The position numbers and the translations under genes were made by a program. Shown here piece by piece: positions 9,248 through 39,815 of a DNA stretch of 64,000 nt. Under the pieces are notes generated by a model. The model was given only the letters and a program-made list of their open reading frames with translations. It searched no databases and had not been told where the DNA came from. The stretch is from IMG/VR virus record IMGVR_UViG_3300012936_003490, positions 1-64,000 of that record; one strand, written 5' to 3'. How positions within the stretch are numbered: position 1 is the first letter of the stretch; each line of letters opens with the position of its first letter. The stretch is from a virus.

Positions 9248-9264
9248 AAATTTTCTCCTATATA

Positions 9265-12188: not shown

Positions 12189-12195
12189 TACATAG

Positions 12196-17036: not shown

Positions 17037-17037
17037 T

Positions 17038-17877: not shown

Positions 17878-19017
17878 TTAAGTCTCAATTATATCTACAA
17901 TACAATTGTCTAATATCTTGTAATTTTGATTTCTTTGCTTATCATAAAGTTTGGTCTTTCTTGCAAACTCTTTAAGCAAAAAACTATCTTTATATTCTTG
18001 TTTACATTTAGTAAGGTATTGTAATATTTGCTTATTGCTGTTTTTTTCAATTGCTATATTAATAATGTCATCTGGTAAATTTTTTACATTCAATTCACTT
18101 TTTGCATATGGTTTTATATAGCAATCAATATGTAATTCTTTATCATATCCTATGCTTTTCAAGTACTTTTCAATATTGGGTATATCAAATATGTTGTAAA
18201 TATTAAGCAACGTAGAAATATTTAAAGTAAAACTAGGACTAGTATGTTTCATTAAATTACGTAAATTAATGTCCAAGTCTTTCCATTTGCCAGGATATCT
18301 GATATATTCATAAACTTTATCAAATCCATCAATACTAACATTTATTGTACATTGTTCAAAACTAAGTAACTTATCTATAACATTTTGATTAATTTGCAAT
18401 CCATTAGTAGTAATTTTCATACCAAGTCTTTTGTTATAATTATTTTCAATACACCAGTCTAACAATTTTATAAAATGTTTTTGATAAAAAGGTTCACCTC
18501 CAGTTGTCTTAAATTCTTTAAGTCCCTTTTTTATAAGTTCTTTACAATATTCTAATTTTTCATCTTCTTTATATTTTTGATTTTTAGTTGGAACATTGTG
18601 TATACGATCTTGTTGCGGAATATTTTTTAGTAAAGAATTTATTAAACTGCTACTTAAAGGACTGCACATTCTACATGCAAGGTTGCATGTATTATTAAAT
18701 TTTACATCAGCTGTTAAAACTGTCGTAGGTTCTAAATTATAGTTGACGTCAGTATATTTTTTAACAAACTTCTGCCTACTACTTTCTATACCTACATCTT
18801 CTTGCCGATAACAAACTTCGCAGACTTTTGGTCTTTTGTTGTCACGCATATATTGACGAGTAAGAATATGATCTTTAGAAAAAATTCCGTTTTTTATATC
18901 GTTGCCAGACCAATTACCTATATCACTTCTAAGATCAGTTCTACAACAAGGTACAACTTTAGAACTAACTTTTACACAAAAATGATTCCACAACAACGGA
19001 CATGCTGTTTCCATCAC
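17878..19017 (-). CDS. radical SAM protein with N-terminal twitch-like Cys domain
   Basis: CNLACRMC, GGEPF; N-terminal C-P-x-W...PCC...CxxC. Confidence 0.9.
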   Translation of the reverse strand: MMETACPLLWNHFCVKVSSKVVPCCRTDLRSDIGNWSGNDIKNGIFSKDHILTRQYMRDNKRPKVCEVCYRQEDVGIESSRQKFVKKYTDVNYNLEPTTVLTADVKFNNTCNLACRMCSPLSSSLINSLLKNIPQQDRIHNVPTKNQKYKEDEKLEYCKELIKKGLKEFKTTGGEPFYQKHFIKLLDWCIENNYNKRLGMKITTNGLQINQNVIDKLLSFEQCTINVSIDGFDKVYEYIRYPGKWKDLDINLRNLMKHTSPSFTLNISTLLNIYNIFDIPNIEKYLKSIGYDKELHIDCYIKPYAKSELNVKNLPDDIINIAIEKNSNKQILQYLTKCKQEYKDSFLLKEFARKTKLYDKQRNQNYKILDNCIVDIIET

Positions 19018-20126
19018 ATTTTCCTTTTTGGAATTTTGCTATCTGCTGAACTTACACAACTTTGCGTGATACACATTTTTGGCTCTTTAAATAGATTAAA
19101 GCCTGTTTCGATGTTACCAAGGGGTGCATCATGACAAGAATAACTCCTTTTTACCGAACCGTCAGGCTCCCGTATTATTATTCCGCTAAAACCGGCGTTA
19201 CATGCCCATCCTTCAAATTTATTGAAATTAAAGGCGTTAAAGCGTTCTGCTTGGTCCATATACCATTTGTTACCTTTGGAGTCTTGCATTTCTACTTGCA
19301 TGTGCCAAGGAACACTGGCATCATTTGTACCATTTATTCCTTTAGGTATTTCAAATGTTGGTTTAGGGCGACCCTCCCATTTTCTTTTAAATTCTGTGTA
19401 TGCTCTTTGTGGCATACCGTTCCAGAGTCGTTCAAGTTGATCCTTAGTGTATCCATCAACCACCCTTGACGCAGTCGGATCCGATTGAGGCTTGAGTGTG
19501 ACATTAATTCCTTGTTCGTGGAAGAAGAGAGCGTTTTCCCAATCTCTTTCAAACCATTCAGGAACCATAACTTGATTGATTGTAATTTGTACATCGTATT
19601 CTTGACACAGGATTAATTTGTCTGCAAACTCCTGCATCCTCTCCTTTGTGTTTACATGTTCTGTGTGCAGACTTGCTGTAATACTTGCTCTATGGAACGG
19701 CTTTGCATACTCTACATAAGTTTCAAACCACTTCATTGGACGACTACAGTTGCTCGTCATGTGTATACTTGTATAGTTTGTATTTGCTACATCATCTGCT
19801 AGATGTTTTAGTATGTCCAAGTATCCAGGATGGAAAGTAGGTTCTCCTCCTGACAAGGAGAAGTGGAAAGAATTGAAGCCGTTGAGTCTAGCTTGACGTT
19901 TGATTTCATCCACTGTAAGCAAGCAGAGCTCGGTAGGACGGTGGTCTTTACGATCGCTTCTTGCGTAAGGCCAGCAGTAGGAGCATCTGTAGTTACAGAA
20001 TCTTCCGAGTAACCAGGATACAGTAAATAGATCGCGATAAAGCAGAGTACGTTGACCAACAGAGACAATGTCATCAAAAGGGATCTTAGTAAAGTCATAA
20101 TTACTCCATTTTAAATCTTCACTCAT
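19014..20126 (-). CDS. radical SAM protein (W..G..CNYxCxYC subfamily, C-terminal Cys cluster)
   Basis: CNYRCSYC, SGGEPT; C-terminal CNAG...SC...C...C. Confidence 0.9.
   Translation of the reverse strand: MSEDLKWSNYDFTKIPFDDIVSVGQRTLLYRDLFTVSWLLGRFCNYRCSYCWPYARSDRKDHRPTELCLLTVDEIKRQARLNGFNSFHFSLSGGEPTFHPGYLDILKHLADDVANTNYTSIHMTSNCSRPMKWFETYVEYAKPFHRASITASLHTEHVNTKERMQEFADKLILCQEYDVQITINQVMVPEWFERDWENALFFHEQGINVTLKPQSDPTASRVVDGYTKDQLERLWNGMPQRAYTEFKRKWEGRPKPTFEIPKGINGTNDASVPWHMQVEMQDSKGNKWYMDQAERFNAFNFNKFEGWACNAGFSGIIIREPDGSVKRSYSCHDAPLGNIETGFNLFKEPKMCITQSCVSSADSKIPKRKM
19808..20098 (-). CDS. overprinted +1-frame membrane-anchored protein (96 aa) nested in a radical SAM gene
   Basis: GGAG-5 nt-ATG; N-terminal hydrophobic helix LLMTLSLLVNVLCFIAIYLLY; host codons here are conspicuously C/G-ending. 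Confidence 0.6.
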   Translation of the reverse strand: MTLLRSLLMTLSLLVNVLCFIAIYLLYPGYSEDSVTTDAPTAGLTQEAIVKTTVLPSSACLQWMKSNVKLDSTASILSTSPCQEENLLSILDTWTY

Positions 20127-20131
20127 GAATT

Positions 20132-20160
20132 ATTGTAGCACCTTTACATAAACTTGTCAA
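20132..20160 (-). promoter_or_regulatory. sigma70-type promoter TTGACA-17-TACAAT with extended -10 (TGn)
   Basis: TTGACA at 20160-20155, 17-nt spacer, TACAAT at 20137-20132. The ATG at 20126 falls at the expected transcription start, implying a leaderless mRNA. Confidence 0.75.
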
Positions 20161-21102
20161 CTATAGTTTATCTTTAATAAATGTATCTCTTTTATTTTGT
20201 TTACATACTTTTTCGCAACGTGGAATTCTATTATCAGATGTCCAACTATTTTGTATGTCTGTCCAAACTTTTCCATTTAGTGCTTGTTCTACACTTACAT
20301 TTTTTAGATTTATGTCAAACATGTAATCATTATCAATTAAAATTTCTTCAAACCTGTCTTTTGTTTTTCCGCTTACTGGATATTCTAACATTTTTGCATT
20401 AAGATGACAACAGGGTATAACATTGCCCATGTGATTGACAAATATACGTTTTTGATTTGCATATTTACAACTTATGCAAGTAGATTCTTCTACTTCTATT
20501 TTTTTATGTTTTACACCGCCGGTATCTTTTCTATGGCTAATTATAGTTTTGAATGCTTTAAATCCTTCATCTTTGGCCATTTGCCTTGCTATTTCAAGTT
20601 GGTGTTCGTTATGCTCAAAACTTATAAACTGCCAATTTGCTTTGCCGCCGGCGGCAATAAATGCTCTAAAGTTTTGCTGTACTTTTTTGAATTTAGAACC
20701 TTCTCTATATACTTCAGATAATTCGTCGCTTCCGTCTATGCCCCAAGTAACTCTATGACTCTTAGGCAATATTCCTGCAAGTTCAGTCCACCATTTTGTA
20801 GTACGCAAACTACCATTTGTTGCAACATTTATATGTACGTCCCAATCAGCAAAGTGTTTCACAATATCAAAAAATTGAGGATGACTACAAGGTTCGTCAA
20901 CACTACCGCAAAAATTTATAATTTTCATATTAGGAAACATCTGCTTTTGAAACTTTTCTTTAATAGTTTCTATATCAAGATATGTTTTATTTAATATTTG
21001 ATCGGCATATTTAGATTCAACACGAAAACATCCTTTGCATTTTATATTGCAAAAACTTGTAAGTTCTATGTCGATCCATTCTAAGGTATCAGCTGTCCAC
21101 AT
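20161..21102 (-). CDS. radical SAM protein with C-terminal SPASM/twitch-like domain
   Basis: CNIKCKGC, NFCGSVDEP; C-terminal C...PCC...CxxxC. Confidence 0.9.
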   Translation of the reverse strand: MWTADTLEWIDIELTSFCNIKCKGCFRVESKYADQILNKTYLDIETIKEKFQKQMFPNMKIINFCGSVDEPCSHPQFFDIVKHFADWDVHINVATNGSLRTTKWWTELAGILPKSHRVTWGIDGSDELSEVYREGSKFKKVQQNFRAFIAAGGKANWQFISFEHNEHQLEIARQMAKDEGFKAFKTIISHRKDTGGVKHKKIEVEESTCISCKYANQKRIFVNHMGNVIPCCHLNAKMLEYPVSGKTKDRFEEILIDNDYMFDINLKNVSVEQALNGKVWTDIQNSWTSDNRIPRCEKVCKQNKRDTFIKDKL

Positions 21103-22501
21103 CTTTAAAAATATCTCTCATTTCCGGAAATGTATCTGCAAATTTTATTCCTCTTTGTTTGTCGCAAAGTTCTAAAAATTCTTTCATTTCAGGCAAACGT
21201 ACACTCCAATCTTCGCTGTCCATAAAACTTAGAATACCTTCTAGTCGTTTTATACCATATTCTGCTGTTCGCCATTTGTTGTAATCAACTTTACCTTTGT
21301 GCCATGTTGGAACACCTAACTGCCGATTCTTTTCCCACCACGGATACCATGACTCATATTTTTTATGACATTCTTCTTTGAACCATTTAGGTAAAACTTT
21401 TACATTTAAATGGCCTGGCCAATATACAAAGTGTTGACTAATACCACCTGCACCAAACGGCCACATGTTAACTTTACGAAAACCTTGTTCTAGTTTCCAT
21501 TGTATTAGGTCTGGAAGATAATAAACGTTAAGAGCTTGAACAGCGCAAGCAATGGTTATTTCTACATTGTTTGTTGTTTCTTTATCCAGTCTATGAAATG
21601 TGTTTACTTGATTAGCCCATTCGCTAGGATAACGTATATAACTGTTCATTTCTTTGATGCTGTCAATGCTGTAGTGAAATCTTACCAATTTAAAATGACT
21701 CCAAAGTTCAAATAAATCTTCACGCCATTCTACACCATTTGAATTGTAGCGTAGTTCTAGATCTTTCGCATATCCCATCTTAATAGCATGTTCGAGTATT
21801 TCGTAGTGTTCTTCAATAATAAGACTTTCACCGCCAGCAAAATAAATTTGTTGCATACTTGGCATCTGCTCATAAAACTGTTTCCAAAATGTTGGATTTT
21901 GTTTATGCCAATTGTAACTACTACCGTTAGTGCTACCTTTGTCTTTCCATTGCATAATCTCTTTTAGTGATTCATTTTTTACAGCAGGAAAAATTGCTTT
22001 GTAATCTTTGATCCAACCAGAGCTGTCATGCGGACTACACATAACACATGCTAATTGACACTTAGTTCCAAAACGTAAATCAATGTATGCTAGATTAGGA
22101 GGAACGCTTCCGTCCGGATTTGTTTCTTCTAATATCTTGTTAATATCAACACGCTTACTCCAATATCTAGTTTCCCATTGTCTTTTACTTTTATGGCCAG
22201 CCGCTTCTTCTTTGTAACACTTTAAACAACTTGGTGGTTGTTCGCCATTAAGCATTTGCAGACGAACATTCTTCATATATGTGCTATTCCATGCTGTTTC
22301 AAAATCACTTACATTTAAATTGTTGGGTTTGCCGTCATCAGTTTTCAGAATACCTACTTGGCCGCCATGTTCTTTATCATTTGTAGGACCAACACTACTA
22401 GCATTTGCTGTACAGCATACACGCATACTGCCGTCTGGTCTTGTGCTAAGATGTACCCAGGGTAATAAGCAAAAAGTGTCTGAGGGATATTTATCGTTCA
22501 T
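21089..22501 (-). CDS. radical SAM protein with N-terminal twitch-like domain
   Basis: CLLPW...VCC...CLKC, CQLACVMC and AGGES. Confidence 0.9.
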   Translation of the reverse strand: MNDKYPSDTFCLLPWVHLSTRPDGSMRVCCTANASSVGPTNDKEHGGQVGILKTDDGKPNNLNVSDFETAWNSTYMKNVRLQMLNGEQPPSCLKCYKEEAAGHKSKRQWETRYWSKRVDINKILEETNPDGSVPPNLAYIDLRFGTKCQLACVMCSPHDSSGWIKDYKAIFPAVKNESLKEIMQWKDKGSTNGSSYNWHKQNPTFWKQFYEQMPSMQQIYFAGGESLIIEEHYEILEHAIKMGYAKDLELRYNSNGVEWREDLFELWSHFKLVRFHYSIDSIKEMNSYIRYPSEWANQVNTFHRLDKETTNNVEITIACAVQALNVYYLPDLIQWKLEQGFRKVNMWPFGAGGISQHFVYWPGHLNVKVLPKWFKEECHKKYESWYPWWEKNRQLGVPTWHKGKVDYNKWRTAEYGIKRLEGILSFMDSEDWSVRLPEMKEFLELCDKQRGIKFADTFPEMRDIFKDVDS

Positions 22502-22515
22502 ATTGTACTTATTTC

Positions 22516-23745
22516 TTAAGATATGCTCTCTAATTGTTTATTGACTTGCATTAATTTTTCATCACGACTTCTTGTTTCCGATCCGCAATGCTTGCCACAT
22601 CTTACTATTCGAGGAAATTTTTTATCAAAAGTTGTGTTGTCAAAACTTTTGTTTAGATCATTCGTAAAAAACCTATGATCCATAATTGCAGATAAAGTAT
22701 GGAACTTTACATTATTCCAATCATCTGCATACTGATTCTCATAGTGAGACAAACGTTCATAATCACGTCTATCGCTTATCCAATCGTATTCTTTTGATTC
22801 ATGAGGTTGAATAGGATAATGATAAAATGTGCTAAAATAACAACACTGCCAAACTCTGCCTGTATAGTCTATACTTATTTGACGTTTGTTAAACCATTCG
22901 CACTCGATCTCAGTGCTGTTAATATTTTCTTTTACTGAACGTTTATACCAAGGTTTATTAGGATATTCGCTTCCTATTTGTTTATCTTCTGGTATTACTA
23001 GTTCTGCATACTGAGAAATTGTTTTGATATCTTCTTTGTTTATATTTTTCTTTTTTTGACTCAAATTATCTATTTTTATTTTATTTGTGTTATGGCGCAA
23101 TCTAGATCTTCTAATTTTAAATTTATGAAATCCTAGCTGTTTAGCCATTGCTTTTGCTTTTTCTATTTGATGTTCGTTATGCTCAAAGGCAATGAAACTC
23201 CATACACATCTGACGCCACTTGCTATACATGTTTTAGCATTTTCTATAACTTTATCAAAATTAACTCCTCGTCTATACAGTTGGTGTGTATCATCGTCTA
23301 CACCATCTAGAGCAAAAACAATTACACTAGTTTTATCATATTTTTGTTTAATAATTTTGCACAGAGACGTCCACCATTTTTCGTCATGTAATCCTCCGTT
23401 TGTTTCACACATAAAACGTAATTTTTCTGTAAGTTTATTTTTTAATCTATATTGAGAAAACTTGTTTACATTATCAGCAATTTTATCTACTATTGTATGA
23501 CAATCAGGATGAAGTATAAAATCTCCGTATGTTCCTGTAAAGTTTATGTAACGTGCATTTTGTGATACAGTTGTATCAAAGATATTGTCTATAAACATTT
23601 TATCTAACAAACCTGCTGATCCAACTTCTATAAAAGGATTAATTTCATCTGTTCCCTGCACAAATCTTTGGCAGTCTAAACATCTGCTGTTACAATTGCT
23701 TGTAATTTCTAGATGTATTCCTTGGTCGTGCATATCAAATTGCAT
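22516..23745 (-). CDS. radical SAM protein with C-terminal SPASM/twitch-like domain
   Basis: CNSRCLDC; C-terminal C...QCC...CGKHC. Probable start is ATG 23745 (track start 23763). Confidence 0.9.
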   Translation of the reverse strand: MQFDMHDQGIHLEITSNCNSRCLDCQRFVQGTDEINPFIEVGSAGLLDKMFIDNIFDTTVSQNARYINFTGTYGDFILHPDCHTIVDKIADNVNKFSQYRLKNKLTEKLRFMCETNGGLHDEKWWTSLCKIIKQKYDKTSVIVFALDGVDDDTHQLYRRGVNFDKVIENAKTCIASGVRCVWSFIAFEHNEHQIEKAKAMAKQLGFHKFKIRRSRLRHNTNKIKIDNLSQKKKNINKEDIKTISQYAELVIPEDKQIGSEYPNKPWYKRSVKENINSTEIECEWFNKRQISIDYTGRVWQCCYFSTFYHYPIQPHESKEYDWISDRRDYERLSHYENQYADDWNNVKFHTLSAIMDHRFFTNDLNKSFDNTTFDKKFPRIVRCGKHCGSETRSRDEKLMQVNKQLESIS

Positions 23746-24940
23746 ACTCAACACCAGTAACATGATTAGACATTAAAGATTTAAAAGTTTGTGCATCACT
23801 GCTTTTTGTTGCACACAGGCCGCATCTACAAATCATATTAGGACAAATTATAGGTTCTAATGTTCCTGATGCAAGTTGCTTTTCTACACTGTCTGTAAAT
23901 TTTTTGTAATCTGTAATAGATCCAACTGCTCCTCTTTGTTTTCCAATTTTAGCTTGACATGTTTGATGATGAAAAATTTGATCAGTTTGACTTTCAAGAT
24001 GTAAGAAAAACCAATTCACTCCACAATACCAATCTAAAAATCGTGTATCTGAAACATATCTTTGTTGTTCTGTTGTGCCGCATTTCAAACCGCAACTAAG
24101 TTGATGGTTACTACAACAATGTCTACCTTCTATAGTATATGTTTTAGTTTTATCTGCCTGTAATTTTTTAAATGTTTCTCCTACATCTTTTTTCATTTTA
24201 CGATGAAGTTTGACCTCTTTGTTAACATTTTCAACTTTTTTAGTTGTGGTTGTAGCAATTTTTGTTTTACTGCTTTTACTGTTCTTATTTTGCCAGTAGT
24301 TTTTTATCCAACTACTCTGCTCATAACTGTAGGGTAAACCGTTTATTACCCTCGGCATATACTTGACATCATGTTCTTCCATTACATCTATAAAATCTAA
24401 ACACTCTTTCCAATAATTATCATATGGATGCATCATTAAATTAACTTTAAAACTTTTTAATTCTTGCTTTAATAGAAGAGTATTTTCTCTCACTTTTTGT
24501 TTGATTTTTTCTTTGCTATCACAGTGGTAACTTAATGTTATACCTCTAAAATTTTTTGCAAGTAGCGGAATATGTTTTTGTGCAAAACTACCGTTAGTTG
24601 TAAGTATAGTGTACACATCATAATCAAAGTCTTGAAAACTTTCTTTGAGATAAGAACTAAAGTCAACAAAACAAGGATTTGCTGTTGGCTCTCCACCTGT
24701 AAGACTTAAACTTGCTGTCTTTTCTGTTCTATATGGCATGATAATTTTTAAGTAATCTTTAACTAAGTCCACACCCTTAACTAGTTCGTTAAAACTAGGA
24801 AAAGGACTTACAAGGTCGTGTCTATCATCTCCGCAGTAAGCACAATCAAAATTACACCGTTTTCCTGTATCCCAAGTGATAATAAACTGATTTGTTTTTA
24901 CAGGATCAATGCTGTTATATGTTCCGTTTTCTCTATCCAT
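23735..24940 (-). CDS. radical SAM protein (W..G..CNFxCxYC subfamily)
   Basis: CNFDCAYC, TGGEPT; Cys-rich C-terminus (CPNMICRCGLC). Confidence 0.9.
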   Translation of the reverse strand: MDRENGTYNSIDPVKTNQFIITWDTGKRCNFDCAYCGDDRHDLVSPFPSFNELVKGVDLVKDYLKIIMPYRTEKTASLSLTGGEPTANPCFVDFSSYLKESFQDFDYDVYTILTTNGSFAQKHIPLLAKNFRGITLSYHCDSKEKIKQKVRENTLLLKQELKSFKVNLMMHPYDNYWKECLDFIDVMEEHDVKYMPRVINGLPYSYEQSSWIKNYWQNKNSKSSKTKIATTTTKKVENVNKEVKLHRKMKKDVGETFKKLQADKTKTYTIEGRHCCSNHQLSCGLKCGTTEQQRYVSDTRFLDWYCGVNWFFLHLESQTDQIFHHQTCQAKIGKQRGAVGSITDYKKFTDSVEKQLASGTLEPIICPNMICRCGLCATKSSDAQTFKSLMSNHVTGVEYAI

Positions 24941-26177
24941 CTAAATATTTCCGATATCTCTTGTTTAATTTATTCAAGTCTGTATTACGTAGTTTGTCTT
25001 GAAGTTTTGTATAACTTTTAAAATATTCAAATTCACCTGTGCGTAACTTTCTGTTTTTATCAAAACTTAAAATATTTTCAATCTCTTTGAGTACAAAAGG
25101 ACTAGATGATAGAGTTTTTTTGACATACTTTCTATCTTTGTCTGTCAAAAACGCTGTAGACAGCCAGGATTGTTCTACCTGTGCATATAAAACTTTAATT
25201 CCTCCACATGATCTAAACCAGGCATCAAACTCTGCAATTTTTTTGACATTTAAAATATTATACATTTGCATTACAAAACTTGTTTGTATTTTAACATTTT
25301 CAAAACGTTCAGCTAAATGCAGAAACTTTTCAATGTTATTTTTTACAATATTCCAGTTGCCGTTAGATCTTACATATTCATAATCTTTTTCTGTACCATC
25401 TAAACTTATCATAATAATGCATTTTTTAAATTTAGATACAATTTTATCAAAATCTTTAGGATAAATCGTTCCATTGGTTGTAAAAACTAGTTCGCACTCT
25501 TGTACATTTACACTATTAGAAAATTTATCTATAGCCAACCAAGATTCATCATGTAATAAAGGTTCTCCTCCTAATAACTTCATACGTTTAACATTTTCAA
25601 AAGGAACTTGTTCTACAAAATTATTTGTGTCTTTGTTTTTTTTGTAAAGATGTTGATTAGCATCTTTGACTATTCTATCGCTTATTTTATCAGGATCGGC
25701 ATCAATATATTCATTTTGATGTTTAACCATTTCTTTTGCAATTTGAGAACTGCTTCCAGGTTTACACATTCTACATTGTAAGTTACATAGATTACTTGCT
25801 CTAATATCAAGACCTAAAGGTGCATTAAATTCATTTCCTGTTTCAACTGATAGTTTAAGGCCTTTTCCTTTTGTTAACCGTCTGGCCATATGATAATAAA
25901 TGCGTCTTGCATTATAGCCTAATTTTTTTTCAATGTTTAAACAACTCTTACAAAACTCTGGAACTACACCATCAAGCATTTGTTGCCGCACATTTTTCAT
26001 ATAATCACTTGTCCAATAATCTTTATAATCTTTAAAAGTAAGATCTATTGTTTCTTTTGTATTGCGAGTCTCGCAACAGGGACGTAGTAAGGATTTTTTT
26101 GCATCTCCTTTATAAAATAAATGCATAAAAGGAGCGTAGCACAGGGGCTCAGACTGTTGGTTTTGGTTTTCCATCAA
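24933..26177 (-). CDS. radical SAM protein with N-terminal twitch-like domain
   Basis: CYAPF...PCC...CKSC, CNLQCRMC and LGGEPL; AGGAG SD lies inside the upstream gene. Confidence 0.9.
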   Translation of the reverse strand: MMENQNQQSEPLCYAPFMHLFYKGDAKKSLLRPCCETRNTKETIDLTFKDYKDYWTSDYMKNVRQQMLDGVVPEFCKSCLNIEKKLGYNARRIYYHMARRLTKGKGLKLSVETGNEFNAPLGLDIRASNLCNLQCRMCKPGSSSQIAKEMVKHQNEYIDADPDKISDRIVKDANQHLYKKNKDTNNFVEQVPFENVKRMKLLGGEPLLHDESWLAIDKFSNSVNVQECELVFTTNGTIYPKDFDKIVSKFKKCIIMISLDGTEKDYEYVRSNGNWNIVKNNIEKFLHLAERFENVKIQTSFVMQMYNILNVKKIAEFDAWFRSCGGIKVLYAQVEQSWLSTAFLTDKDRKYVKKTLSSSPFVLKEIENILSFDKNRKLRTGEFEYFKSYTKLQDKLRNTDLNKLNKRYRKYLDG

Positions 26178-27543
26178 AGTGGGCTCCTGGTCTAGATCCT
26201 TCAGTTACATTTGTTGGATCATATCTGTCAAAATATCTTTGTAGCATTGGTTCAATAGTAAGCGTATCAGTTCCTCTGATTTTATTCAACGCTAATTCTG
26301 CCCTCACAAAATCATTTGTATATCTTACTTTGCGCTCATGTGTTTGTGTTTTATCAAGTTCACTGTGTAGCAAATCAAACCATTGTTGTTCGTCCTTGTT
26401 CATATCAAACTCAACAATACACTCTTGAACTTGCTGTCTAATATAATCCTTGTGGTCATCGTCTAACCAACTTACACTTAGGTACCAAGGATCAACTATA
26501 GGATTAAATGTTACACCATTATGCTTGTTTGAATACTTACGTGATCCTTTAAGGAACCATTCAACATTACGCTTTACTTGGAATGCACTTACAGGCTGGA
26601 ATACATGCATAATACCTGCCCACTTTAGGTTAGGCAATGTAAATATTTTGTCAAATACTTTTTGTTTTTTATCCCATTTAGTACCGTCACGTAAAAATTC
26701 GTCTGTGGCTCCTACGCCATCTACACTAATGTTAAAGCTCACTTCTTTAAACTGAGCAAGTAAGTCATAAATCCTACTTGGTAAACTTGTGCAGTTTGTT
26801 ATTTGATGCAGTCTTACATTGCGAGCTTCTCCGCTGTCTACAATCTTTTTCATAATATTGTAAACACGAGGATCAATAAGTGTTTCGCCTCCACTCATTT
26901 TCAAACGAAATACTTTACTAAAGTCTAAATTACTTACCACATCAAACTTAGGATCTGAATAATCTATTTGCTGTGCTTTACGCATTGCATTCTTACTTTG
27001 TGTAACCATATCCCAATGACTCCAACCCTGTATTTCTGGGTTAGCAAGCACTTCTTGCTCAATTTGGTTACTCCAAAGGCTATTACAACTGCGACATTTC
27101 AAGTTACACAGTTTACTAGGACGTAGATCAATATCCACAGGTTTTTCAAACTCAAGTGTACCCTTTTGAATATCCCAATGTATATCTGTAAAGCCTTCTT
27201 TAAGTTCTAGCTCGTAGCGTTTTATATAATCTAATCTGTCGCTTTTATGATAGATGCCTTCACTTTCCCAACGTCCGCACCACCATTCACAAGACTCTGG
27301 CATTTTACCATCAAGAAAACTTTGACGAATTTCTTGCATTGTCTCGCCTTTCCAAAATTCTTCATGCTGATCTTTAAGACTAGATTCAGTATCCCATCGT
27401 CCAATCACATGACTCATACAACAAAGTTTATATCCTCTGTTGTTTGCATTTATGTATGTGTGCATAAACGGTGCAGGACAGAATTTTTTGTTTGGAACGA
27501 TGCTTTCTAAACGTTCTGCTTCTTTTTTATCTATTTTAGCCAT
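26149..27543 (-). CDS. radical SAM protein with N-terminal twitch-like domain
   Basis: CPAPF...LCC...CEWWC, CNLKCRSC and SGGET. Confidence 0.9.
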   Translation of the reverse strand: MAKIDKKEAERLESIVPNKKFCPAPFMHTYINANNRGYKLCCMSHVIGRWDTESSLKDQHEEFWKGETMQEIRQSFLDGKMPESCEWWCGRWESEGIYHKSDRLDYIKRYELELKEGFTDIHWDIQKGTLEFEKPVDIDLRPSKLCNLKCRSCNSLWSNQIEQEVLANPEIQGWSHWDMVTQSKNAMRKAQQIDYSDPKFDVVSNLDFSKVFRLKMSGGETLIDPRVYNIMKKIVDSGEARNVRLHQITNCTSLPSRIYDLLAQFKEVSFNISVDGVGATDEFLRDGTKWDKKQKVFDKIFTLPNLKWAGIMHVFQPVSAFQVKRNVEWFLKGSRKYSNKHNGVTFNPIVDPWYLSVSWLDDDHKDYIRQQVQECIVEFDMNKDEQQWFDLLHSELDKTQTHERKVRYTNDFVRAELALNKIRGTDTLTIEPMLQRYFDRYDPTNVTEGSRPGAHFDGKPKPTV

Positions 27544-28778
27544 TCAGTTAATTCCACACATGATAAATCATCGAAAGATTGACTTCGTTGTTCATCAAGT
27601 GTTGTTGACATATATTTAAGCTGATCACGTTTTTTATATTTTACGTCTGGTTCAATCTTTTTTGCCATCTCAACATAACGTTCAAATTCTTTAACTTGCC
27701 TACAGTCAGTATTTTGCCATTTTGTTAGAGTACATTCTAGTAAACTACTAGGTAAAAACTTTGCGGCAAGTTCACTGTCTTTAGGACGTAGATTTAAATT
27801 AAAGTCAATACGGGGTATGTAATTTTTCTTTAACAACCAAGGATACTTTTCTGTATAGGATTTTAATGTAGTATACAGTTCTGGATTATTATGCCAATTA
27901 TAGGCTGTTACTACTGTACTTGTTCTAACTCTAAAATGAGGATTTTCATACATTCTATGTTCATCTGCAAAAGCAAGAAACTCCATAAATCTTTCTTGCC
28001 ACTTACTCCACGTAAACGGATACCGAATATAGTCGTAGGTTTCATTGCATCCGTCAACACTTACATTTAGGTCGACACCCTTAAAATGTTTTAACCTTTC
28101 TAACACCGCACGAACAAACTTGGTTCCATTTGTAGTTATTAACAATCTAATATTTTTAGCAAAGTCATTGTCAATTGCATAATCAAGAACATCAAGAAAT
28201 TCTTTACTTATAAAAGGCTCACCACCTGTGACTTTTAGTACTTCAATTGTGTCTAACAATTCAATCACATATTCTTTACGTTTTTGGCTTACAGTTGCAG
28301 TGTCTTTCTGCTTGTAGTTTGTAAAAGATTTCCAATGCTCAGGCATAGGCTTTTCATTATCTCTGTACCAATCTATAGCTGAAACAAGTTGATTACTACT
28401 ACTTGGGTCACACATTCTACAAGCAAGATTACAAGTGTTATCAAAACGCAAATCTAAATATTTAATTTTTTCATCTGCGTCAGGATTAACAAACTCTTTA
28501 AATTTATCTACAGTGTAGGTGTGTCTAAAACTTAGTCCGTCGTTGCGCTCTCTTGCATAACAAACTTCGCAAGCAGGATGTTCTTTTCCTTGTTGCATGT
28601 ATGCCCGTATCTCGTCCATGCTTGTGCTTTCAAATGCTTGTTTTATACTGTTAGCATCATCTTTAAAATTAAAGTAACTTTCGCTGTTACAACAAGGACG
28701 ATAACCTCCGCCTACACTTCCGTTTACGTGTATCCAAGGAAGTATGCAAAATGTTTTACTATTTGTTGGTTGCTTCAT
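27531..28778 (-). CDS. radical SAM protein with N-terminal twitch-like domain
   Basis: CILPW...PCC...CEVC, CNLACRMC and TGGEPF. Confidence 0.9.
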   Translation of the reverse strand: MKQPTNSKTFCILPWIHVNGSVGGGYRPCCNSESYFNFKDDANSIKQAFESTSMDEIRAYMQQGKEHPACEVCYARERNDGLSFRHTYTVDKFKEFVNPDADEKIKYLDLRFDNTCNLACRMCDPSSSNQLVSAIDWYRDNEKPMPEHWKSFTNYKQKDTATVSQKRKEYVIELLDTIEVLKVTGGEPFISKEFLDVLDYAIDNDFAKNIRLLITTNGTKFVRAVLERLKHFKGVDLNVSVDGCNETYDYIRYPFTWSKWQERFMEFLAFADEHRMYENPHFRVRTSTVVTAYNWHNNPELYTTLKSYTEKYPWLLKKNYIPRIDFNLNLRPKDSELAAKFLPSSLLECTLTKWQNTDCRQVKEFERYVEMAKKIEPDVKYKKRDQLKYMSTTLDEQRSQSFDDLSCVELTEWLK

Positions 28779-29815
28779 CTTATCTTCTCTAATGTTTTTT
28801 TGTATTTTTTTAACATTTTAAGAGCAGATAGGTCTTCATGCTCTAAGTGAAGTTGCAAATATCTTGTTACAAATTGATTTTTTATTTTCTTAATAAACTT
28901 TTCTTTCTTGTTTTTTGGCAATATTTGTATATCTAAATAATAAGGCTGTTGTAAAATATCAAAACGTGTGGGAAAATACTTTCTACTAAATTCTAAATAA
29001 TTATTAATATTATGTATATTTAAATTATGAACTACAAAATGAAAAGATATTTCAATATTAGTGTGTTTTGCTTTAAAATCTTTCCACCATTTTATATTTT
29101 CGATTACTTTTTTCCAATTAGTTCCATACCTTACAAATTCTGCGGTTTTGCCTTCTCCATCTAAACTTATATCTACATTTAATTTTTTGCATTTGACAAA
29201 TATATTTTGCCATTCTTTATTAGGCTTTACACTACAATTTGTAACAATTTGTAAATTTATATTTTCTAATAATAAACTTTGTAAAAATTTGATATTCCTT
29301 GGCTCCATAAAAGGTTCTCCTCCAAGAATTTTTACCATCTCTACTTTCTTTAATTCTTGGGGAACAAAATCAAAGTCTGTATATACAACTTGCTTTTTTG
29401 GTTTGGCTTTATTTGCTCCTATTGAATTTACAGCATCAATATCTTTCCACCAAGTGGTGCTGTATGCCGCATCACATGTAACACAGGCAAAATTGCAACT
29501 ATTACTTAATCCAACTTCTATATATCTTATTTCAGGATTATTTTTGTTTATGTTACTAAAGTCTTGATTAGCTGTTTGTCTATAACTTTTCCTACCTAAC
29601 TTTTCATCTCTATAACATTTTTCACAACCTTTGATATATTCTCCTTTTAACATTTTATTCCTTAGCTCTGTCATCTTAGAACCATAAAAATAATCACGAG
29701 GAGATATCTTATCTATATATTCTTTATCAGAAAACCTACAGCAAGGTTTGTTCCTGCCACCTACATTTGTACAACTGTGGATAAAAGGTAACGGACAATA
29801 AGTTTTGTTTACCAT
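28775..29815 (-). CDS. radical SAM protein with N-terminal twitch-like domain
   Basis: CPLPF...PCC...CEKC, CNFACVTC and LGGEPF. Confidence 0.9.
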   Translation of the reverse strand: MVNKTYCPLPFIHSCTNVGGRNKPCCRFSDKEYIDKISPRDYFYGSKMTELRNKMLKGEYIKGCEKCYRDEKLGRKSYRQTANQDFSNINKNNPEIRYIEVGLSNSCNFACVTCDAAYSTTWWKDIDAVNSIGANKAKPKKQVVYTDFDFVPQELKKVEMVKILGGEPFMEPRNIKFLQSLLLENINLQIVTNCSVKPNKEWQNIFVKCKKLNVDISLDGEGKTAEFVRYGTNWKKVIENIKWWKDFKAKHTNIEISFHFVVHNLNIHNINNYLEFSRKYFPTRFDILQQPYYLDIQILPKNKKEKFIKKIKNQFVTRYLQLHLEHEDLSALKMLKKYKKTLEKIR

Positions 29816-31023
29816 ACCATTTCCTCAACTGACTTTCCAAAGACTTTAGAAAAATTTTGATTTTTAATAGTGTCAATTCTATGTGTATAATATATAAATG
29901 CATCTACATCTTTTTTAGATTCTCTTGAATTTTGTAAAGCATGTATAATCATATCTGCCATTTTAATTGCACCTTGACGTTGTAAACTTTTCTCCTGCGA
30001 AAATAGTTTTTTCCTAATTTTTCCAACATGTTTTATAAGATTGTTTTTTTGATTGTATAAAACATCTATGCCTAAATATGTAGGATACTGAACAAAACTA
30101 TGATGCAGTCTGTCTACCGGTAATAATAACATATCGTTAATAATATTTTCTAAATCTAAAATTTGATAAGGTGTTATTGTGTTAGTAGCTTCTAAAATTG
30201 TTTTTTTGTTTTTTTTCTTAAACGTTTGAATATTTGTGATTATATTCTCATATATCCCGTTCCTAAAATAATTATAAAGATTACTACCTCCATCTACACT
30301 AATTTTTATTTGTGATCTACCAAAGTTATTCATATATTCGCTTAGTTTTTCATAATCAACAGGAGTGTTAAAATTGCTAACAATATTCACCCAAATTTTA
30401 TTTCTATTTGGGTGTGCTTGTATGCCTTCTAAAAATTGCCAAAATTGTTTTTGATATAAAGGTTCGCCACCTCCAACATCTATTCTTTTAAGGTTAGGAC
30501 AGTTTTGTATCAAATCAGTTACAAGATCATTTACTTGTTCTTTAGTCCATGATTGATTAGGCCACTGCCTTACCAAATTCTTTATGTCATGTGTGTAATC
30601 ATCTGGCACACGTTCTACTCGTTTTAAAATACTGTTCCATTTACTTGAATAATCAGGAGCACAGTGTCTACAACTAAGGTTACATGCATTACTAAATCTT
30701 ATCTCTATGTATTCAATATTACGTTGTTTAATTTTATTTTGACGATTCAACTTCGTAACCATTTTTTGATTTTGATTACTTTTTTGTCTATAACTTTCTT
30801 GTCCCCTTGATTCTTGATCTTGACAACTTTTACAATGCTCTGGCCAGACACCTTTTGCAAGTGATTGTCTTATTGCTCTAAAATTATCATTATTGATAAA
30901 TTTGCTAGGAGCTACACCTTCAGATATGTTTGCTAGAGAGCCTGTGCCTCTAGGACACATTGTAATTCTATCGTCAGGTTTAAAGTTTACGGCATGAAGT
31001 GCAAAATAACAAGGCAATTTCAT
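29809..31023 (-). CDS. radical SAM protein with N-terminal twitch-like domain (CP in place of CC)
   Basis: CNLSCRHC, GGGEPL; N-terminal C...MCP...CKSC. Confidence 0.9.
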   Translation of the reverse strand: MKLPCYFALHAVNFKPDDRITMCPRGTGSLANISEGVAPSKFINNDNFRAIRQSLAKGVWPEHCKSCQDQESRGQESYRQKSNQNQKMVTKLNRQNKIKQRNIEYIEIRFSNACNLSCRHCAPDYSSKWNSILKRVERVPDDYTHDIKNLVRQWPNQSWTKEQVNDLVTDLIQNCPNLKRIDVGGGEPLYQKQFWQFLEGIQAHPNRNKIWVNIVSNFNTPVDYEKLSEYMNNFGRSQIKISVDGGSNLYNYFRNGIYENIITNIQTFKKKNKKTILEATNTITPYQILDLENIINDMLLLPVDRLHHSFVQYPTYLGIDVLYNQKNNLIKHVGKIRKKLFSQEKSLQRQGAIKMADMIIHALQNSRESKKDVDAFIYYTHRIDTIKNQNFSKVFGKSVEEMVW

Positions 31024-31775
31024 TTTATATTACCTATGTGATTATATAAAAATCTTGCTAGTTCAGTATGTCCTTCTTCTAACGGGTGGTTATCAGGGCC
31101 AATTGAGTAATTCTTATCTTGGCACCATTCTAAGATTCCTTGTTCTCCTAGTGGCCATATATTTTTATTCAGATCAATACATCCGTATGTGTCTATTATT
31201 TCTTTTGTAATATGATTTGGATACCTTTTGTTCCTGCATTTTTCTATCGTGCGATTAATATCATCAAATGTATGATGGTTCATTGTTAACATAACGTAAG
31301 GAATATTGTAACTTTTCAATAACATTTGTGTATCTAATATATTATTCATAGTATAAAATGCACTGCAATGTTGAGAGAAATAAATTTGATGTTTGGCAAG
31401 ATGTTTGGTACTATCATTAGGAAGTTCACTCATCCTTATATCTACCCATTTCGCCATAGATTTTTCCTTCATAAACCTGGATGGCATAAGCGGAATATAG
31501 CCGGTATTATATTCGTTTGCTGGCCAATCTTTATTATATAATTCCCATCTACTAGTCGAACTCCATTGAATAACAGCTATCTTGACTTTGTCTTTATTTT
31601 TTATTATACTTCTAAGTGTAGTTCTTGCTATTCTTGCATTACTTGAACCTCCCATAGCATCGTTAAGATGACTAGGATATCCTAGAAGTTGTGTAAGGAT
31701 ATTACTATATCTACTCTGTCTTTTTTGTTGTAATTCATGTCCATCAGTATAACTGCATCCGTTTGCGTATAACAT
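31020..31775 (-). CDS. SGNH/GDSL-like protein
   Basis: LYANGCSYT, GGSSNARI, QWS...R and DNHP. Probable start is ATG 31775 in a TAATG overlap. Confidence 0.7.
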   Translation of the reverse strand: MLYANGCSYTDGHELQQKRQSRYSNILTQLLGYPSHLNDAMGGSSNARIARTTLRSIIKNKDKVKIAVIQWSSTSRWELYNKDWPANEYNTGYIPLMPSRFMKEKSMAKWVDIRMSELPNDSTKHLAKHQIYFSQHCSAFYTMNNILDTQMLLKSYNIPYVMLTMNHHTFDDINRTIEKCRNKRYPNHITKEIIDTYGCIDLNKNIWPLGEQGILEWCQDKNYSIGPDNHPLEEGHTELARFLYNHIGNIK

Positions 31776-32833
31776 TATAATTCCTGCATTCCTATGTGCT
31801 TGCCTATAGGTATACTTTTCTTTGAGCATTGTTTTATACATGTAGACAAGCACCCATTCTCAAAAGAATATTTTTCACTCCAACTATTGACTAAGGCATC
31901 TGAATAATATTCACCTGCTATTATATCATCTAAGTTGTATTTGTGAAGACTGTTAAAACCTACTCCGTATTTTAAAAAAACTTTATTTTGCATCTCAGTA
32001 TAATAGGTGTATCCTCTTGTCAAAGGATTTGATACAAAGCAACACGGCCAAATTGCACCGTTGTAATCTAAAAACATTTTCTTTTCTTGTCGGAAGTGAC
32101 AATCTATATCAATTTCGTTACCGTAGCTTGCAACCAAATTATCAACACTAGATATATCTAATCTTTTACTAGCTCTATTTGGTACAGTTTTAATTCTGTT
32201 ACGAAAAGCCATTGCATTTACTATACCATTTTCACTGTATGTAGATCTATCTCTTCTAAGTACAAAACGTTTCATGCCTATTTTTTTTGCAATTTTTTTA
32301 CAACGCTTAACATCTTTTTTGTTCCAAGGAAATTCTAACATTTGCCATAATGCAGATCCTCCTGCTTTTATAAAAATTTCTGCATGACTTATTATATCAT
32401 CCCAATTTTCTACACCACGATACAAAAAATGATTTTCTTGCATTCCGTCAATGCTAAATCTAACCATATGTTGCGGATGCCTACATAATTTCTCGGCAAG
32501 CTCAACGTAAAATTTATTACTACGCAAACTTCCGTTCGTGTGTATGCTTACAGTGCATTGAGGATTGTATGTATAGATAGTGTCTAGTATATCTAAGAAA
32601 TATTTATGAGCCAAGGGTTCATCTACTGTACCGCAAAATTCAATTTCTTTAATTTGTCTTCCTACATCTGTATCAAATATGTTTTTGAAAACGTCTGTAG
32701 GCAAAAATTTAGTTCCTTCTTGCTTGAATAAAAATTTTGCATTAGGTGCAACCCTTACACAACCTTGACAATCTGCATTGCAAAAATTAGATATCTCTAC
32801 CTGTAATACATCTATCTGTGTCAAATACTTCAT
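31775..32833 (-). CDS. radical SAM protein with C-terminal SPASM/twitch-like domain
   Basis: CNADCQGC, EFCGTVDEP and PCC...CIKQC. Confidence 0.9.
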   Translation of the reverse strand: MKYLTQIDVLQVEISNFCNADCQGCVRVAPNAKFLFKQEGTKFLPTDVFKNIFDTDVGRQIKEIEFCGTVDEPLAHKYFLDILDTIYTYNPQCTVSIHTNGSLRSNKFYVELAEKLCRHPQHMVRFSIDGMQENHFLYRGVENWDDIISHAEIFIKAGGSALWQMLEFPWNKKDVKRCKKIAKKIGMKRFVLRRDRSTYSENGIVNAMAFRNRIKTVPNRASKRLDISSVDNLVASYGNEIDIDCHFRQEKKMFLDYNGAIWPCCFVSNPLTRGYTYYTEMQNKVFLKYGVGFNSLHKYNLDDIIAGEYYSDALVNSWSEKYSFENGCLSTCIKQCSKKSIPIGKHIGMQEL

Positions 32834-33912
32834 GTAAATTGTTCTGCATATGGATCAAATTCGCTTCCGCATTTTTGAGCGCAAACTCCTAATTTTCCTT
32901 GGGCAATACTTTCTTTTTTCCAACTATCTGATATGCTGTTAATTAATTTTCCATTAACAACTGTTTTAATATCATTATTGATAATATTTATACCCTGTTT
33001 TCCTCCTGCAAAATCTATATGATCCCAAATTTGTTCAACACGAGGATCATTATGCCACCATTTATACATTCGTCCAGCTGTCCAACAACATGGCATCAAA
33101 AGTCCTTCGGCAGTTACAAAAATACTACCTTGTTTTGCTACCTTACAAGTTACACTACATTTGTCTAGATAATTGGCCATACTACCGTAAGATTTTTCAA
33201 TCTCTTTTTGTTTAAGCAATGCAAGATTTTGATTTTGTTCTTGTGTTGGTTTTTGTAGTTTTTGTGTATCTGACCCTTTGCGATTTACAGCTTGATGTTC
33301 ATTTTTTGGTTTTATATCAGTTGTAATAAATCTGCCTGATTTCTTCTTTACAAACTTTTCACATCCCCATACTTTTGCAAGTGCTTCTGCTTGTTCAACT
33401 TGATGTTCGTTGTGCTGAAATATTAAATAATCCCATCGAGCTCTACCTCCGGCATCAATAAATGCTCGCATGTTGCGTTCTACATTGTCCCATACAACAT
33501 TCTGCCTGTACAAATGATTAGTGTCCCTAAGGCCGTCCACGCTGAAAATAACAGCACCCATCCTGCCAAAAACTTTGGCCAGTTCACGCCACCATGCTTC
33601 ATCTTTTGCTCCTGCATTTGTATTCATACTAAGCCACATGTTAGGGTTATGTGTTCTAAAATAACGAAAAACTTCAAGTGTATCTCGCGCTATTATAGGG
33701 TCTCCTAGGTTACCACACATATACATTGTTTTTAATTGTTTTATAAAAGAAGGTTTAAATATCTTAACGCAATCTTCGTGAGACAATTCTGCATTTGTAA
33801 TATGAGGGTTGTCTGCACCTCCATTCATATTGCGATCACACATAGGACATGCGGCTTGACAACGTTGGGTAATTTCTAAATGTACTTCTTTAATATCTTC
33901 GTATCTATACAT
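32830..33912 (-). CDS. radical SAM protein with C-terminal SPASM/twitch-like domain
   Basis: CQAACPMC, MCGNLGDP and PCC...CAQKC. Confidence 0.9.
   Translation of the reverse strand: MYRYEDIKEVHLEITQRCQAACPMCDRNMNGGADNPHITNAELSHEDCVKIFKPSFIKQLKTMYMCGNLGDPIIARDTLEVFRYFRTHNPNMWLSMNTNAGAKDEAWWRELAKVFGRMGAVIFSVDGLRDTNHLYRQNVVWDNVERNMRAFIDAGGRARWDYLIFQHNEHQVEQAEALAKVWGCEKFVKKKSGRFITTDIKPKNEHQAVNRKGSDTQKLQKPTQEQNQNLALLKQKEIEKSYGSMANYLDKCSVTCKVAKQGSIFVTAEGLLMPCCWTAGRMYKWWHNDPRVEQIWDHIDFAGGKQGINIINNDIKTVVNGKLINSISDSWKKESIAQGKLGVCAQKCGSEFDPYAEQFT
33480..33602 (-). CDS. overprinted +1-frame 40-aa single-pass membrane peptide nested in a radical SAM gene
   Basis: AGGAG-CAAAAG-ATG; MKHGGVNWPKFLAGWVLLFSAWTALGTLIICTGRMLYGTM*; host codons are locally G/C-ending. 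Confidence 0.6.
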   Translation of the reverse strand: MKHGGVNWPKFLAGWVLLFSAWTALGTLIICTGRMLYGTM

Positions 33913-39759: not shown

Positions 39760-39783
39760 ATGAATACCTCATTTATAGAGTTA

Positions 39784-39812: not shown

Positions 39813-39815
39813 GAA

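Follow-up and report, generated by a model that had tools for sequence, protein, structure and literature searches.

Radical SAM (rSAM) enzymes catalyze reactions that rank among the most difficult in biology, and time and again a new subfamily has brought new chemistry. Those with SPASM or twitch domains are best known as peptide maturases, and the twitch-type enzymes BtrN and BlsE act on sugar-derived substrates. In marine myophages, rSAM cassettes were found together with glycosyltransferases in the tail-fibre host recognition cluster, or HRC (Zaragoza-Solas et al., 2020, PMC7029224). The locus described here lies in the IMG/VR virus record IMGVR_UViG_3300012936_003490, a contig of 76,956 bp rated 21% complete by CheckV, of which the first 64 kb (the window) were analyzed. 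Positions 17878-33912 of the window hold 14 minus-strand open reading frames (ORFs), 13 of which encode rSAM proteins. Judged from their sequences, these are two-cluster SPASM/twitch rSAMs in an uncharacterized, permuted and massively arrayed form, and we propose, at a probability of roughly 0.45, that the array tailors a sugar-containing product in the cytoplasm, probably on virion proteins.

The HRC of T4-like pelagimyophages and cyanomyophages is described in a paper that only mentions the rSAM cassettes (PMC7029224), whereas the array reported here is far larger, resides in a jumbo myovirus, and has a defined core that is common to Bdellovibrionota. In the literature on jumbo-phage rSAM arrays and glycosyltransferases, this was the only paper found to mention rSAM cassettes. 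Among characterized enzymes, BtrN, BlsE and DesII resemble the array proteins in combining an rSAM core with one auxiliary cysteine set of the C-x17/18-C...CxxC kind and, like the array, they occur near sugar-transfer genes. However, their auxiliary domain is C-terminal, their similarity to the array proteins is confined to the common core (E 1e-7 or weaker), and the known pathways use one or two such enzymes, compared with 13 here. Homology carries none of their reactions over to the array. The anaerobic sulfatase-maturating enzyme anSME, SkfB, CteB and a cyclopropyl synthase (8VPO) are likewise two-cluster enzymes, and in the PDB they are what the N-twitch profile and model match best. They differ from the array in that no RRE/PqqD domain or recognizable precursor was detected in it, in that seven of its proteins carry the auxiliary domain permuted to the N-terminus, and in that the curated cut-offs of the maturase families for ribosomally made, post-translationally modified peptides (RiPPs) were missed by hundreds of bits. 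These seven proteins match the full model of NF033640, with its N-terminal four-Cys twitch-like domain, CxxxCxxC and GGE. The family is thus catalogued; what distinguishes this locus is that seven old paralogues stand in one operon with two other rSAM subfamilies. In the literature on NF033640 and the N-terminal twitch, no paper naming the family or assaying a member was found.

The original prediction for this stretch, made from the letters alone, had described 13 co-oriented and mostly overlapping CxxxCxxC proteins. All of these ORFs were recovered on the minus strand, each with exactly one CxxxCxxC (13/13). Start/stop overlaps of 4-29 nt between neighbouring genes are the rule, and the two widest gaps within the array measure 34 and 14 nt. 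The gathering score of PF04055 (29.5 bits) is exceeded by 12 of the 13 proteins, at 30.3-59.7 bits; the cut-offs for NF033640 and PF13186 are 170 and 21.5 bits, respectively. The genes are given below, where N-twitch stands for N-terminal twitch, dN/dS for the ratio of nonsynonymous to synonymous substitution rates, and percentages for amino acid identity.

17878-19017 (-): N-twitch rSAM, 379 aa, variable cassette; NF033640 247.7 bits, PF04055 59.7 bits; CNLACRMC at residue 111, with the four N-terminal Cys that are invariant among N-twitch members
19014-20126 (-): CNxxCxYC-type rSAM, 370 aa, conserved core; PF04055 54.2 bits, motif CNYRCSYC; 80-90% in most related viral loci, 63-66% in Bdellovibrionota, dN/dS 0.06; C44/48/51 and C309/331/352/357 kept in 41-42 of 42 aligned orthologue sequences
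20161-21102 (-): rSAM with C-terminal SPASM/twitch-like domain, 313 aa, semi-conserved; PF04055 33.7 bits, PF13186 24.3 bits; orthologues at 74-84% in a subset of loci, C212/231/232/296/300 kept in 17/17 sequences
21089-22501 (-): N-twitch rSAM, 470 aa, conserved core; NF033640 424.8 bits; 58-60% in Bdellovibrionota, dN/dS 0.07; C11/29/30/92/95 and C148/152/155 kept in 78/78 aligned sequences (itself and 77 orthologues)
22516-23763 (-): rSAM with C-terminal Cys domain, 415 aa, cassette; PF04055 44.9 bits; Cys 288, 307, 308, 389, 393; 52% orthologue in loci L028/L040
23735-24940 (-): CNxxCxYC-type rSAM, 401 aa, cassette; PF04055 35.2 bits, motif CNFDCAYC; 25% to 19014 over 177 aa, 66% orthologue in L028/L040, 33-35% matches in two Bdellovibrionota clusters
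24933-26177 (-): N-twitch rSAM, 414 aa, cassette; NF033640 241.1 bits, motifs intact
26149-27543 (-): N-twitch rSAM, 464 aa, cassette; NF033640 240.2 bits, PF04055 18.2 bits (under the cut-off); 88% orthologue in L028/L040, dN/dS 0.05
27531-28778 (-): N-twitch rSAM, 415 aa, cassette; NF033640 261.7 bits; 76% orthologue in L028/L040
28775-29815 (-): N-twitch rSAM, 346 aa, cassette; NF033640 257.7 bits; 57% orthologue in L028/L040
29809-31023 (-): N-twitch rSAM, 404 aa, cassette; NF033640 233.6 bits; N-terminal Cys 5, 23, 64, 67, with a single Cys where other N-twitch members have CC
31020-31853 (-): the sole non-rSAM gene inside the array, 277 aa; only a sub-threshold DUF6071 match (25.8 vs 27 bits), no PHROG match, no PDB sequence match
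31775-32833 (-): rSAM with C-terminal SPASM/twitch-like domain, 352 aa, cassette; PF04055 35.3 bits, PF13186 20.0 bits (just under the cut-off); Cys 245, 264, 265, 328, 332
32830-33912 (-): rSAM with C-terminal Cys domain, 360 aa, conserved core; PF04055 33.5 bits; 62-85% in related loci, 44-46% in Bdellovibrionota; C18/22/25/66/275/276/344/348 kept in 69/69 orthologue sequences, C256 in 67/69

The prediction had also sorted the 13 proteins into lists of seven, four and two, and this division proved exact: NF033640 scores, cysteine patterns and hidden Markov models (HMMs) built from the three groups, which re-sort the window 7/4/2, all agree. The seven N-twitch proteins (17878, 21089, 24933, 26149, 27531, 28775, 29809) score 233.6-424.8 bits against NF033640 and the other six at most 54 bits. 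C11, C29, C92 and C95 (21089 numbering), the three core Cys and GGE are invariant among the seven, and the Pfam SPASM model aligns to residues 11-96 of 21089, that is, to its N-terminus. In the second group, 20161, 22516, 31775 and 32830 share a C-terminal C-x18-CC-x63-80-CxxxC, with no PF13186 match in 22516 or 32830. Since a second conserved Cys set implies an auxiliary cluster, all three subfamilies look like two-cluster enzymes.

Where detectable, pairwise identity among the 13 rSAMs is 18-30% (20-30% among the seven N-twitch paralogues), and they are therefore ancient paralogues rather than recent duplicates. Neither of the two outcomes that would have spoken against the original prediction, degeneration of most copies and grouping with housekeeping families, was seen. 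No degenerate copy was found among the 13, with all cluster cysteines intact, and the nine genes for which dN/dS could be set against orthologues in the fetched loci (the three core rSAMs, 20161 and five cassette genes) gave values of 0.05-0.24 with dS near saturation, by which measure the rSAM genes with orthologues are under purifying selection. None of the 13 reached the cut-offs for MoaA (TIGR02666, best 40.1 vs 284 bits), QueE (TIGR03365/TIGR03963, best 21.4 vs 206-260 bits) or NrdG (TIGR02491/TIGR02495, best 23.7 vs 126-131 bits). The same holds for viperin (NF038283/TIGR04278, cut-offs 180/450 bits), for which the best score was 38.9 bits, from 19014-20126 at residues 35-112 only.

Against solved structures, matches of the N-twitch profile cover the generic rSAM core only (E 1e-10 or weaker), and the AlphaFold2 (AF2) model of 21089 is mediocre (mean predicted local distance difference test, pLDDT, 68.7), with Foldseek matches likewise to the core only. 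Weak matches, by sequence or structure, include BlsE and DesII, and also the lipid rSAMs GDGT-MAS/Tes. A PDB sequence search with 19014 gave no match. That with 32830 gave the NifB core and a spurious ubiquitin. The family itself is large: a profile built from the seven window members matches 7177 clusters at 50% identity (E<=1e-30). Among its representative proteins are single polypeptides of ~800-1470 aa with two or three tandem copies, and fusions to Methyltransf_24 or TPR repeats.

The organization of the array became clear from related viral loci. Relatives of 21089 occur on 446 viral contigs (tblastn E<=1e-3), of which 80 loci, 80-92% identical to 21089, were kept, and identities were tabulated for the 44 loci with the full 21 kb. 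Most of these 44 hold orthologues of 19014 (80-90%), 21089 (81-92%) and 32830 (62-85%), one from each subfamily. By contrast with these three and the semi-conserved 20161, the remaining nine rSAMs find mostly paralogue matches at 20-37%, except that two loci share six of the nine at 44-88%. The related loci nevertheless keep the same overall make-up, with 5-13 rSAMs per 21 kb (median 8.5) of the same three subfamilies and CxxxCxxC intact in nearly all, and whole related records hold 7-19 Radical_SAM matches each (E<=0.001). Gene order is kept as well. In two related records, G001 and G002, it runs from tail fibre through five conserved genes, homologues of the protein encoded at 34817-37438 and an ORF of 74-75 aa to the orthologues of 32830, 21089 and 19014, and different rSAMs and other genes intervene between these anchor genes. 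The depth in one metagenome run, with core genes at up to ~900x summed and most cassette genes at ~2-30x, mirrors this split. The fixed core thus consists of 34817-37438 and one rSAM per subfamily (32830, 21089, 19014), and the ten remaining rSAMs are interchangeable extras whose set varies from one related phage to another. Neither a flavodoxin nor a SAM synthetase was found as a phage-encoded helper in five related records.

The genes that lead into the array are as follows.

33905-34612 (-): 235-aa gene between the 73-aa ORF and the first rSAM; no family match, absent at this position in G001 and G002
34609-34830 (-): conserved 73-aa ORF with a TTG start, overlapping both neighbours
34817-37438 (-): 873-aa core protein with two homologous GT-A-like domains (predicted fold, DxD) and a C-terminal domain
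37441-40748 (-): five lineage-conserved genes at the operon head, 27-51% identity in relatives, order kept

The core partner 34817-37438 matches no Pfam, NCBIfam or PHROG family, and among its more than 8000 homologues, the 120 listed carry no precomputed Pfam domain. Its residues 1-310 were modelled by AF2 at pLDDT 88.1, and Foldseek matched this first domain at probability 1.00 to the GT-A enzymes ThuS/SunS, PBCV-1 A64R, WrtF, RmlT and TarS. VIA-align of residues 4-157 gave Z 10.3 to the Leptospira glycosyltransferase 6p61 and 10.0 to B4GALNT1, and STIV A197 and mimivirus R699 are also among the structural matches. An alignment of 19 homologues from phages and bacteria, the second domain of 34817 itself among them, keeps D65 and D67 (DGD) throughout, and the protein is split into separate genes in G001 and G002 (two or three) and in Bdellovibrionota. 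Together, these features suggest with moderate confidence that 34817-37438 is GT-A-like and probably a glycosyltransferase. It resembles PBCV-1 A64R in its predicted GT-A-like first domain with DxD but, at 34817-37438, belongs to no curated GT sequence family. The C-terminal domain has no PDB sequence match. The upstream glycosyltransferases of the original prediction are therefore retained in part, and the link to sugar transfer, though real, is indirect: 34817-37438 has the GT-A-like fold, the DxD and co-conservation with three rSAMs, whereas 37922-38662 yields weak matches only (Mannosyl_trans3 at E=0.004, and phrog_1903). The SGNH proteins that it placed among the array genes were not confirmed, their basis being the one sub-threshold DUF6071 match of 31020. 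In the same way, the labels "methyltransferase" for the C-terminal domain of 34817, "SGNH" for 31020 and "2OG oxygenase" (2-oxoglutarate oxygenase) for 17038 were left unconfirmed, with no PDB sequence match for any of them.

The same core is found in bacterial chromosomes, namely those of predatory, Bdellovibrio-type bacteria. NF033640 scores over its cut-off in 79/301 sampled Bdellovibrionota genomes, compared with 4/401 for Bacteroidota and 3/401 for Pseudomonadota. Five Bdellovibrionota chromosomal clusters, one of them on a 2.9-Mb contig, hold orthologues of 19014, 21089 and 32830, often adjacent to one another, together with orthologues of the 34817 domains at 34-44%, and two of the clusters also have a homologue (~31% identity) of the cupin-like 17038-17799. 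The three fully mapped 40-kb clusters contain 10-14 rSAMs each, of the same three subfamilies. No tail-fibre genes were found in these clusters. Among their 104 non-rSAM neighbours, GT2 is the commonest Pfam family (9/104, best E 9e-33), and TPR proteins occur twice. In a tree of the 21089 orthogroup, the phage clade (99*) stands apart from the Bdellovibrionota group (86); the branches of the paralogue outgroup are far too long for reliable rooting, so that this tree does not give the direction of transfer. In a Bacteroidota chromosome (a 1.46-Mb contig; L099, G088:C2:1203000-1222999), two N-twitch rSAMs lie at 7614-16778 beside five PhyH dioxygenases. A WelO5-like halogenase-family protein, a reductive-dehalogenase/ferredoxin-like protein and a methyltransferase are also among the neighbours, a setting that looks quite unlike that in the phage.

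A sugar-bearing substrate is favoured because one rSAM of each subfamily is coupled to GT-A-like transferases in both phage and bacteria, and because GT2 is enriched beside the bacterial clusters. Virus-encoded GT-A enzymes are known to glycosylate capsids. We hypothesize that soluble GT-A-like enzymes would add or assemble a sugar-bearing group in the cytoplasm, with a virion protein (a tail-fibre or other surface protein) as the most probable acceptor, and that each rSAM would then abstract a hydrogen from a different position of this group or of its nucleotide-sugar precursors, with oxidation, epimerization, deoxygenation, decarboxylation or C-C bond formation as candidate outcomes. The cassette set would then determine a variable, serotype-like decoration, and the turnover of cassettes beside host-recognition genes is in keeping with a surface feature on which diversifying pressure acts. 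Late expression, the sugar substrate, the virion target and the reaction types are what we infer from this arrangement.

Several observations weigh against this proposal. No array enzyme is close to any characterized rSAM, the best PDB matches being to the generic core only. The GT-A assignment of 34817 is based on a predicted fold, with Z ~10 against a tool background of 7-8, and the nucleotidyltransferases MobA and IspD score Z ~9 against the same domain. There is no canonical GT2 in the phage island, and neither a PF01370 epimerase/dehydratase nor a PF01943 Wzx in the five Bdellovibrionota clusters, these genes lying elsewhere in the genomes. Further, the Bacteroidota context described above does not resemble glycan chemistry, the TPR fusions and TPR neighbours of bacterial clusters would also fit a protein substrate, and late expression is read from a short motif only.

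The last but one of these points leads to an alternative that we consider unlikely, though worth weighing: that the enzymes modify peptide or protein side chains, either of a RiPP-like product or of a virion protein (tail fibres, or the 73-aa product), with the GT-A-like protein acting as a peptide glycosyltransferase. In the PDB, the N-twitch profile and model match best to the RiPP maturases 8vpo, SkfB and CteB; for the GT-A-like domain, Foldseek ranks two peptide S-glycosyltransferases, ThuS and SunS, at the top; and the TPR fusions and neighbours point the same way. Cupin/2OG-oxygenase-like genes, which occur in proteusin pathways, accompany the array. There is also a strongly conserved small ORF at the array head: the 73-aa ORF has matches in 66 related viral loci (~67-99% identical among the matches listed, with the central 50 residues nearly invariant), and in both G001 and G002 its position is just upstream of the 32830 orthologue. 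However, it stays near-invariant across loci with different enzyme sets, and no match to it (E<=1) was found in the core-sharing Bdellovibrionota clusters. The window copy has no Cys, no family match and no transmembrane (TM)-like segment, with 0-1 Cys in the copies read, and no Cys-rich or hypervariable small ORF was seen; a large protein may still be the substrate. The RiPP-maturase matches, moreover, cover the common rSAM core only. Pfam finds no PqqD/RRE-type domain in the 13 rSAMs (none at E<=0.01) and none at E<=5 in the neighbours scanned, although Pfam could overlook remote RREs.

Tailoring of a sugar-containing product on virion proteins is consistent with the position of the array in the phage genome, in a variable island of the structural region that adjoins the tail fibres. 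The motif and the flanking modules of the operon are as follows.

12196-17799 (-): downstream same-strand module; Aminotran_4 113.8 bits, AMP-binding 58.6 bits; cupin-, SDR- and GNAT-like assignments weak
40773-40780 (-): TATAAATA, a T4-late-promoter-like motif whose start is 32 nt upstream of the start of gene 39816-40748
40776-46374 (-): three tail-fibre-like genes (PHROG tail fibre, tail collar fibre, virion structural protein), directly upstream of the operon
61964-63928: baseplate wedge protein (PHROG), ~30% identity to virion proteins of SCTP-2, Atu_ph07 and PA5oct-type phages

The motif TATAAATA or a one-off variant of it precedes 39816, 39427-39759, the tail-fibre gene 40776, gene 46379, the TctA gene and gene 4925, that is, by our reading it occurs in 6/9 minus-strand gaps of more than 15 nt, with the motif start 18-40 nt before the gene start. 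In the window as a whole the exact motif is rarer than chance (4 matches vs 13 expected). From 39759 down to 17878 no intergenic gap exceeds 34 nt, and scans for terminator-like and sigma-70 sites gave not more matches than shuffled sequences, with no terminator excess inside the array. Because of the shared motif, the short gaps and the lack of a terminator excess, the genes from ~40.7 kb to at least 17.9 kb, probably to 12.2 kb, would form one long late-type operon under common regulation with the tail-fibre genes. Of the sigma-70-like matches within the array, the best one is at 20132-20160 (-), where it fills the 34-nt gap just upstream of 19014 (TTGACA, 17 nt, TACAAT, with a TG extension, 11/12); it may be an internal promoter, as a candidate by consensus match only.

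A cytoplasmic acceptor is favoured over an exported polysaccharide because of the absence of TM-like segments and of export genes, the tail-fibre position and the late-type motif. The proteins of 12196-40748 have no TM-like segments, except for one hydrophobic segment in an 85-aa ORF, and no flippase, polymerase or polysaccharide-export gene was recognized in the operon. The lack of TM-like segments, and the location of the bacterial clusters away from Wzx and nucleoside diphosphate (NDP)-sugar loci, argue against a classical exported surface polysaccharide. It is thus quite improbable that the phage remodels an exported polysaccharide of its host (O-antigen or capsule) during infection, for superinfection exclusion, although this is how the glycosyltransferases in the host recognition clusters of pelagimyophages were read (PMC7029224). 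The cassette variation does resemble O-antigen loci, and GT2 genes are enriched beside the bacterial clusters. However, the Wzx and NDP-sugar epimerase genes of the five Bdellovibrionota genomes lie elsewhere, and a late-type promoter would leave little time for remodelling.

The same position bears on phage DNA as the substrate. Hypermodification pathways of phage DNA can include glycosyltransferases, aminotransferases and one radical SAM enzyme, and the bases might be glycosylated or otherwise decorated to evade restriction, in line with the weak similarity of the 19014 type to the nucleotide-acting rSAMs viperin and MoaA. We regard this as very improbable: the similarity is limited to the cluster-binding N-terminus and is far under the cut-offs, the module that holds the array, behind late-type motifs, is that of the tail fibres and not one for replication or nucleotide metabolism, and the same core stands beside GT2 genes in bacterial chromosomes.

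Genes downstream of the array suggest a further alternative, in which rSAMs, oxygenases, an aminotransferase and an ANL ligase would act in series to make or tailor a soluble small molecule or a lipid (secondary-metabolite-like, a modified nucleotide, or of acyl/lipid A type). The known sugar-type rSAMs do act on small molecules. The same-strand module encodes an aminotransferase of class IV and a partial ANL ligase, which NCBIfam matches best to fatty-acid-CoA ligases, and has weak SDR-, GNAT- and cupin-like matches, among which the cupin-like 17038-17799 has no PDB sequence match; an Asp/Asn-hydroxylase-family protein and a TctA transporter are encoded in the window. The Bacteroidota locus, with its five PhyH dioxygenases, WelO5-like protein and methyltransferase, would fit such a pathway, as would the weak matches to GDGT-MAS/Tes. 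Against this, the location in a virion structural module and the turnover of cassettes beside tail fibres would be unexpected for a metabolite pathway, and only the GT-A-like domains and the cupin-like protein are co-conserved with the core across phage and bacteria. Neither a carrier protein, a polyketide synthase or nonribosomal peptide synthetase, nor a lipid-synthesis gene was found by Pfam/NCBIfam in the window ORFs scanned. We therefore take a small-molecule or lipid product to be unlikely as well.

Further features of this side of the window are listed here.

2841-4109 (+): protein with Mtd_N, the major tropism determinant N-terminal domain, at its N-terminus (46 bits); Bordetella phage BPP-1 has this domain in its receptor-binding protein
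5949-6470 (-): small Asp/Asn beta-hydroxylase-family (cupin oxygenase) protein, 23.1 vs a cut-off of 22.6 bits; the family also includes the lipid A hydroxylase LpxO
8204-9340 (-): next to TctA, one N-terminal hydrophobic segment, no family match; may or may not be TctC
9265-10701 (-): TctA subunit of a tripartite tricarboxylate transporter (Pfam 318.6 bits), nine TM-like segments; TATAAATA motif start 40 nt before the start codon
12872-13543 (-): ANL (AMP-binding) gene, 223 aa, matched to positions 166-380 of the 384 in the profile; the ligase is split or truncated, or else its remainder is encoded by flanking ORFs

The viral origin of the contig, which the original prediction had read from the sequence, is borne out by its presence in IMG/VR, by the structural PHROG matches in the window (baseplate wedge and tail fibre) and by the ~30% identity to jumbo myovirus virion proteins. 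Adjoining the baseplate wedge gene at 47019-61964 (-) is an ORF of 4981 aa, whose first 1500 residues have ~30% identity to a virion structural protein of PA5oct-type jumbo phages. By these sequence similarities, the contig is a fragment of an uncultured marine jumbo myovirus. For one related record, of 381,886 bp, the completeness rating is 100%, and no cultured close relative was found: the array had no megablast match among 50,697 phage records, and 21089 had only three weak tblastn matches there (22% identity, in Vibrio and Ralstonia jumbo phages). No tRNA genes were found in the 64-kb window.

Near-identical contigs from marine metagenomes of three further studies (2014 to 2025) tile the whole array and bridge its gene junctions, at 0-2 mismatches in each piece. 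The array is not an assembly artefact, since its paralogues are too different for mis-joining and the contigs of the further studies tile the stretch. Near-identical contigs also occur in bins of metagenome-assembled genomes (L081-L086), which carry the conflicting labels Flavobacteriaceae, Crocinitomicaceae, Rickettsiales, Gammaproteobacteria and Dojkabacteria. These are probably phage contigs mis-binned into bacterial genomes, and no host is assigned from the labels.

Taken together, the proposed tailoring of a sugar-containing virion product can be extended to a bolder idea, which we hold only tentatively and consider doubtful: that marine jumbo phages and Bdellovibrionota share a combinatorial radical-chemistry system, composed of a fixed core and a swappable N-twitch library, in which each member would carry out a different, undescribed C-H functionalization on a protein-linked glycan. 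If true, the phage would carry a serotype-like, rapidly exchangeable virion surface chemistry beside its tail fibres. The split into core and cassettes offers a minimal four-gene system for reconstitution. Bdellovibrionota, whose chromosomes hold the core, may allow knock-outs in a cellular setting, provided that a cultured strain has it. For this phage lineage, which is recurrent in marine metagenomes, a product that decorates virions would add a new layer to the diversification of the phage surface, next to variation in the tail fibres.

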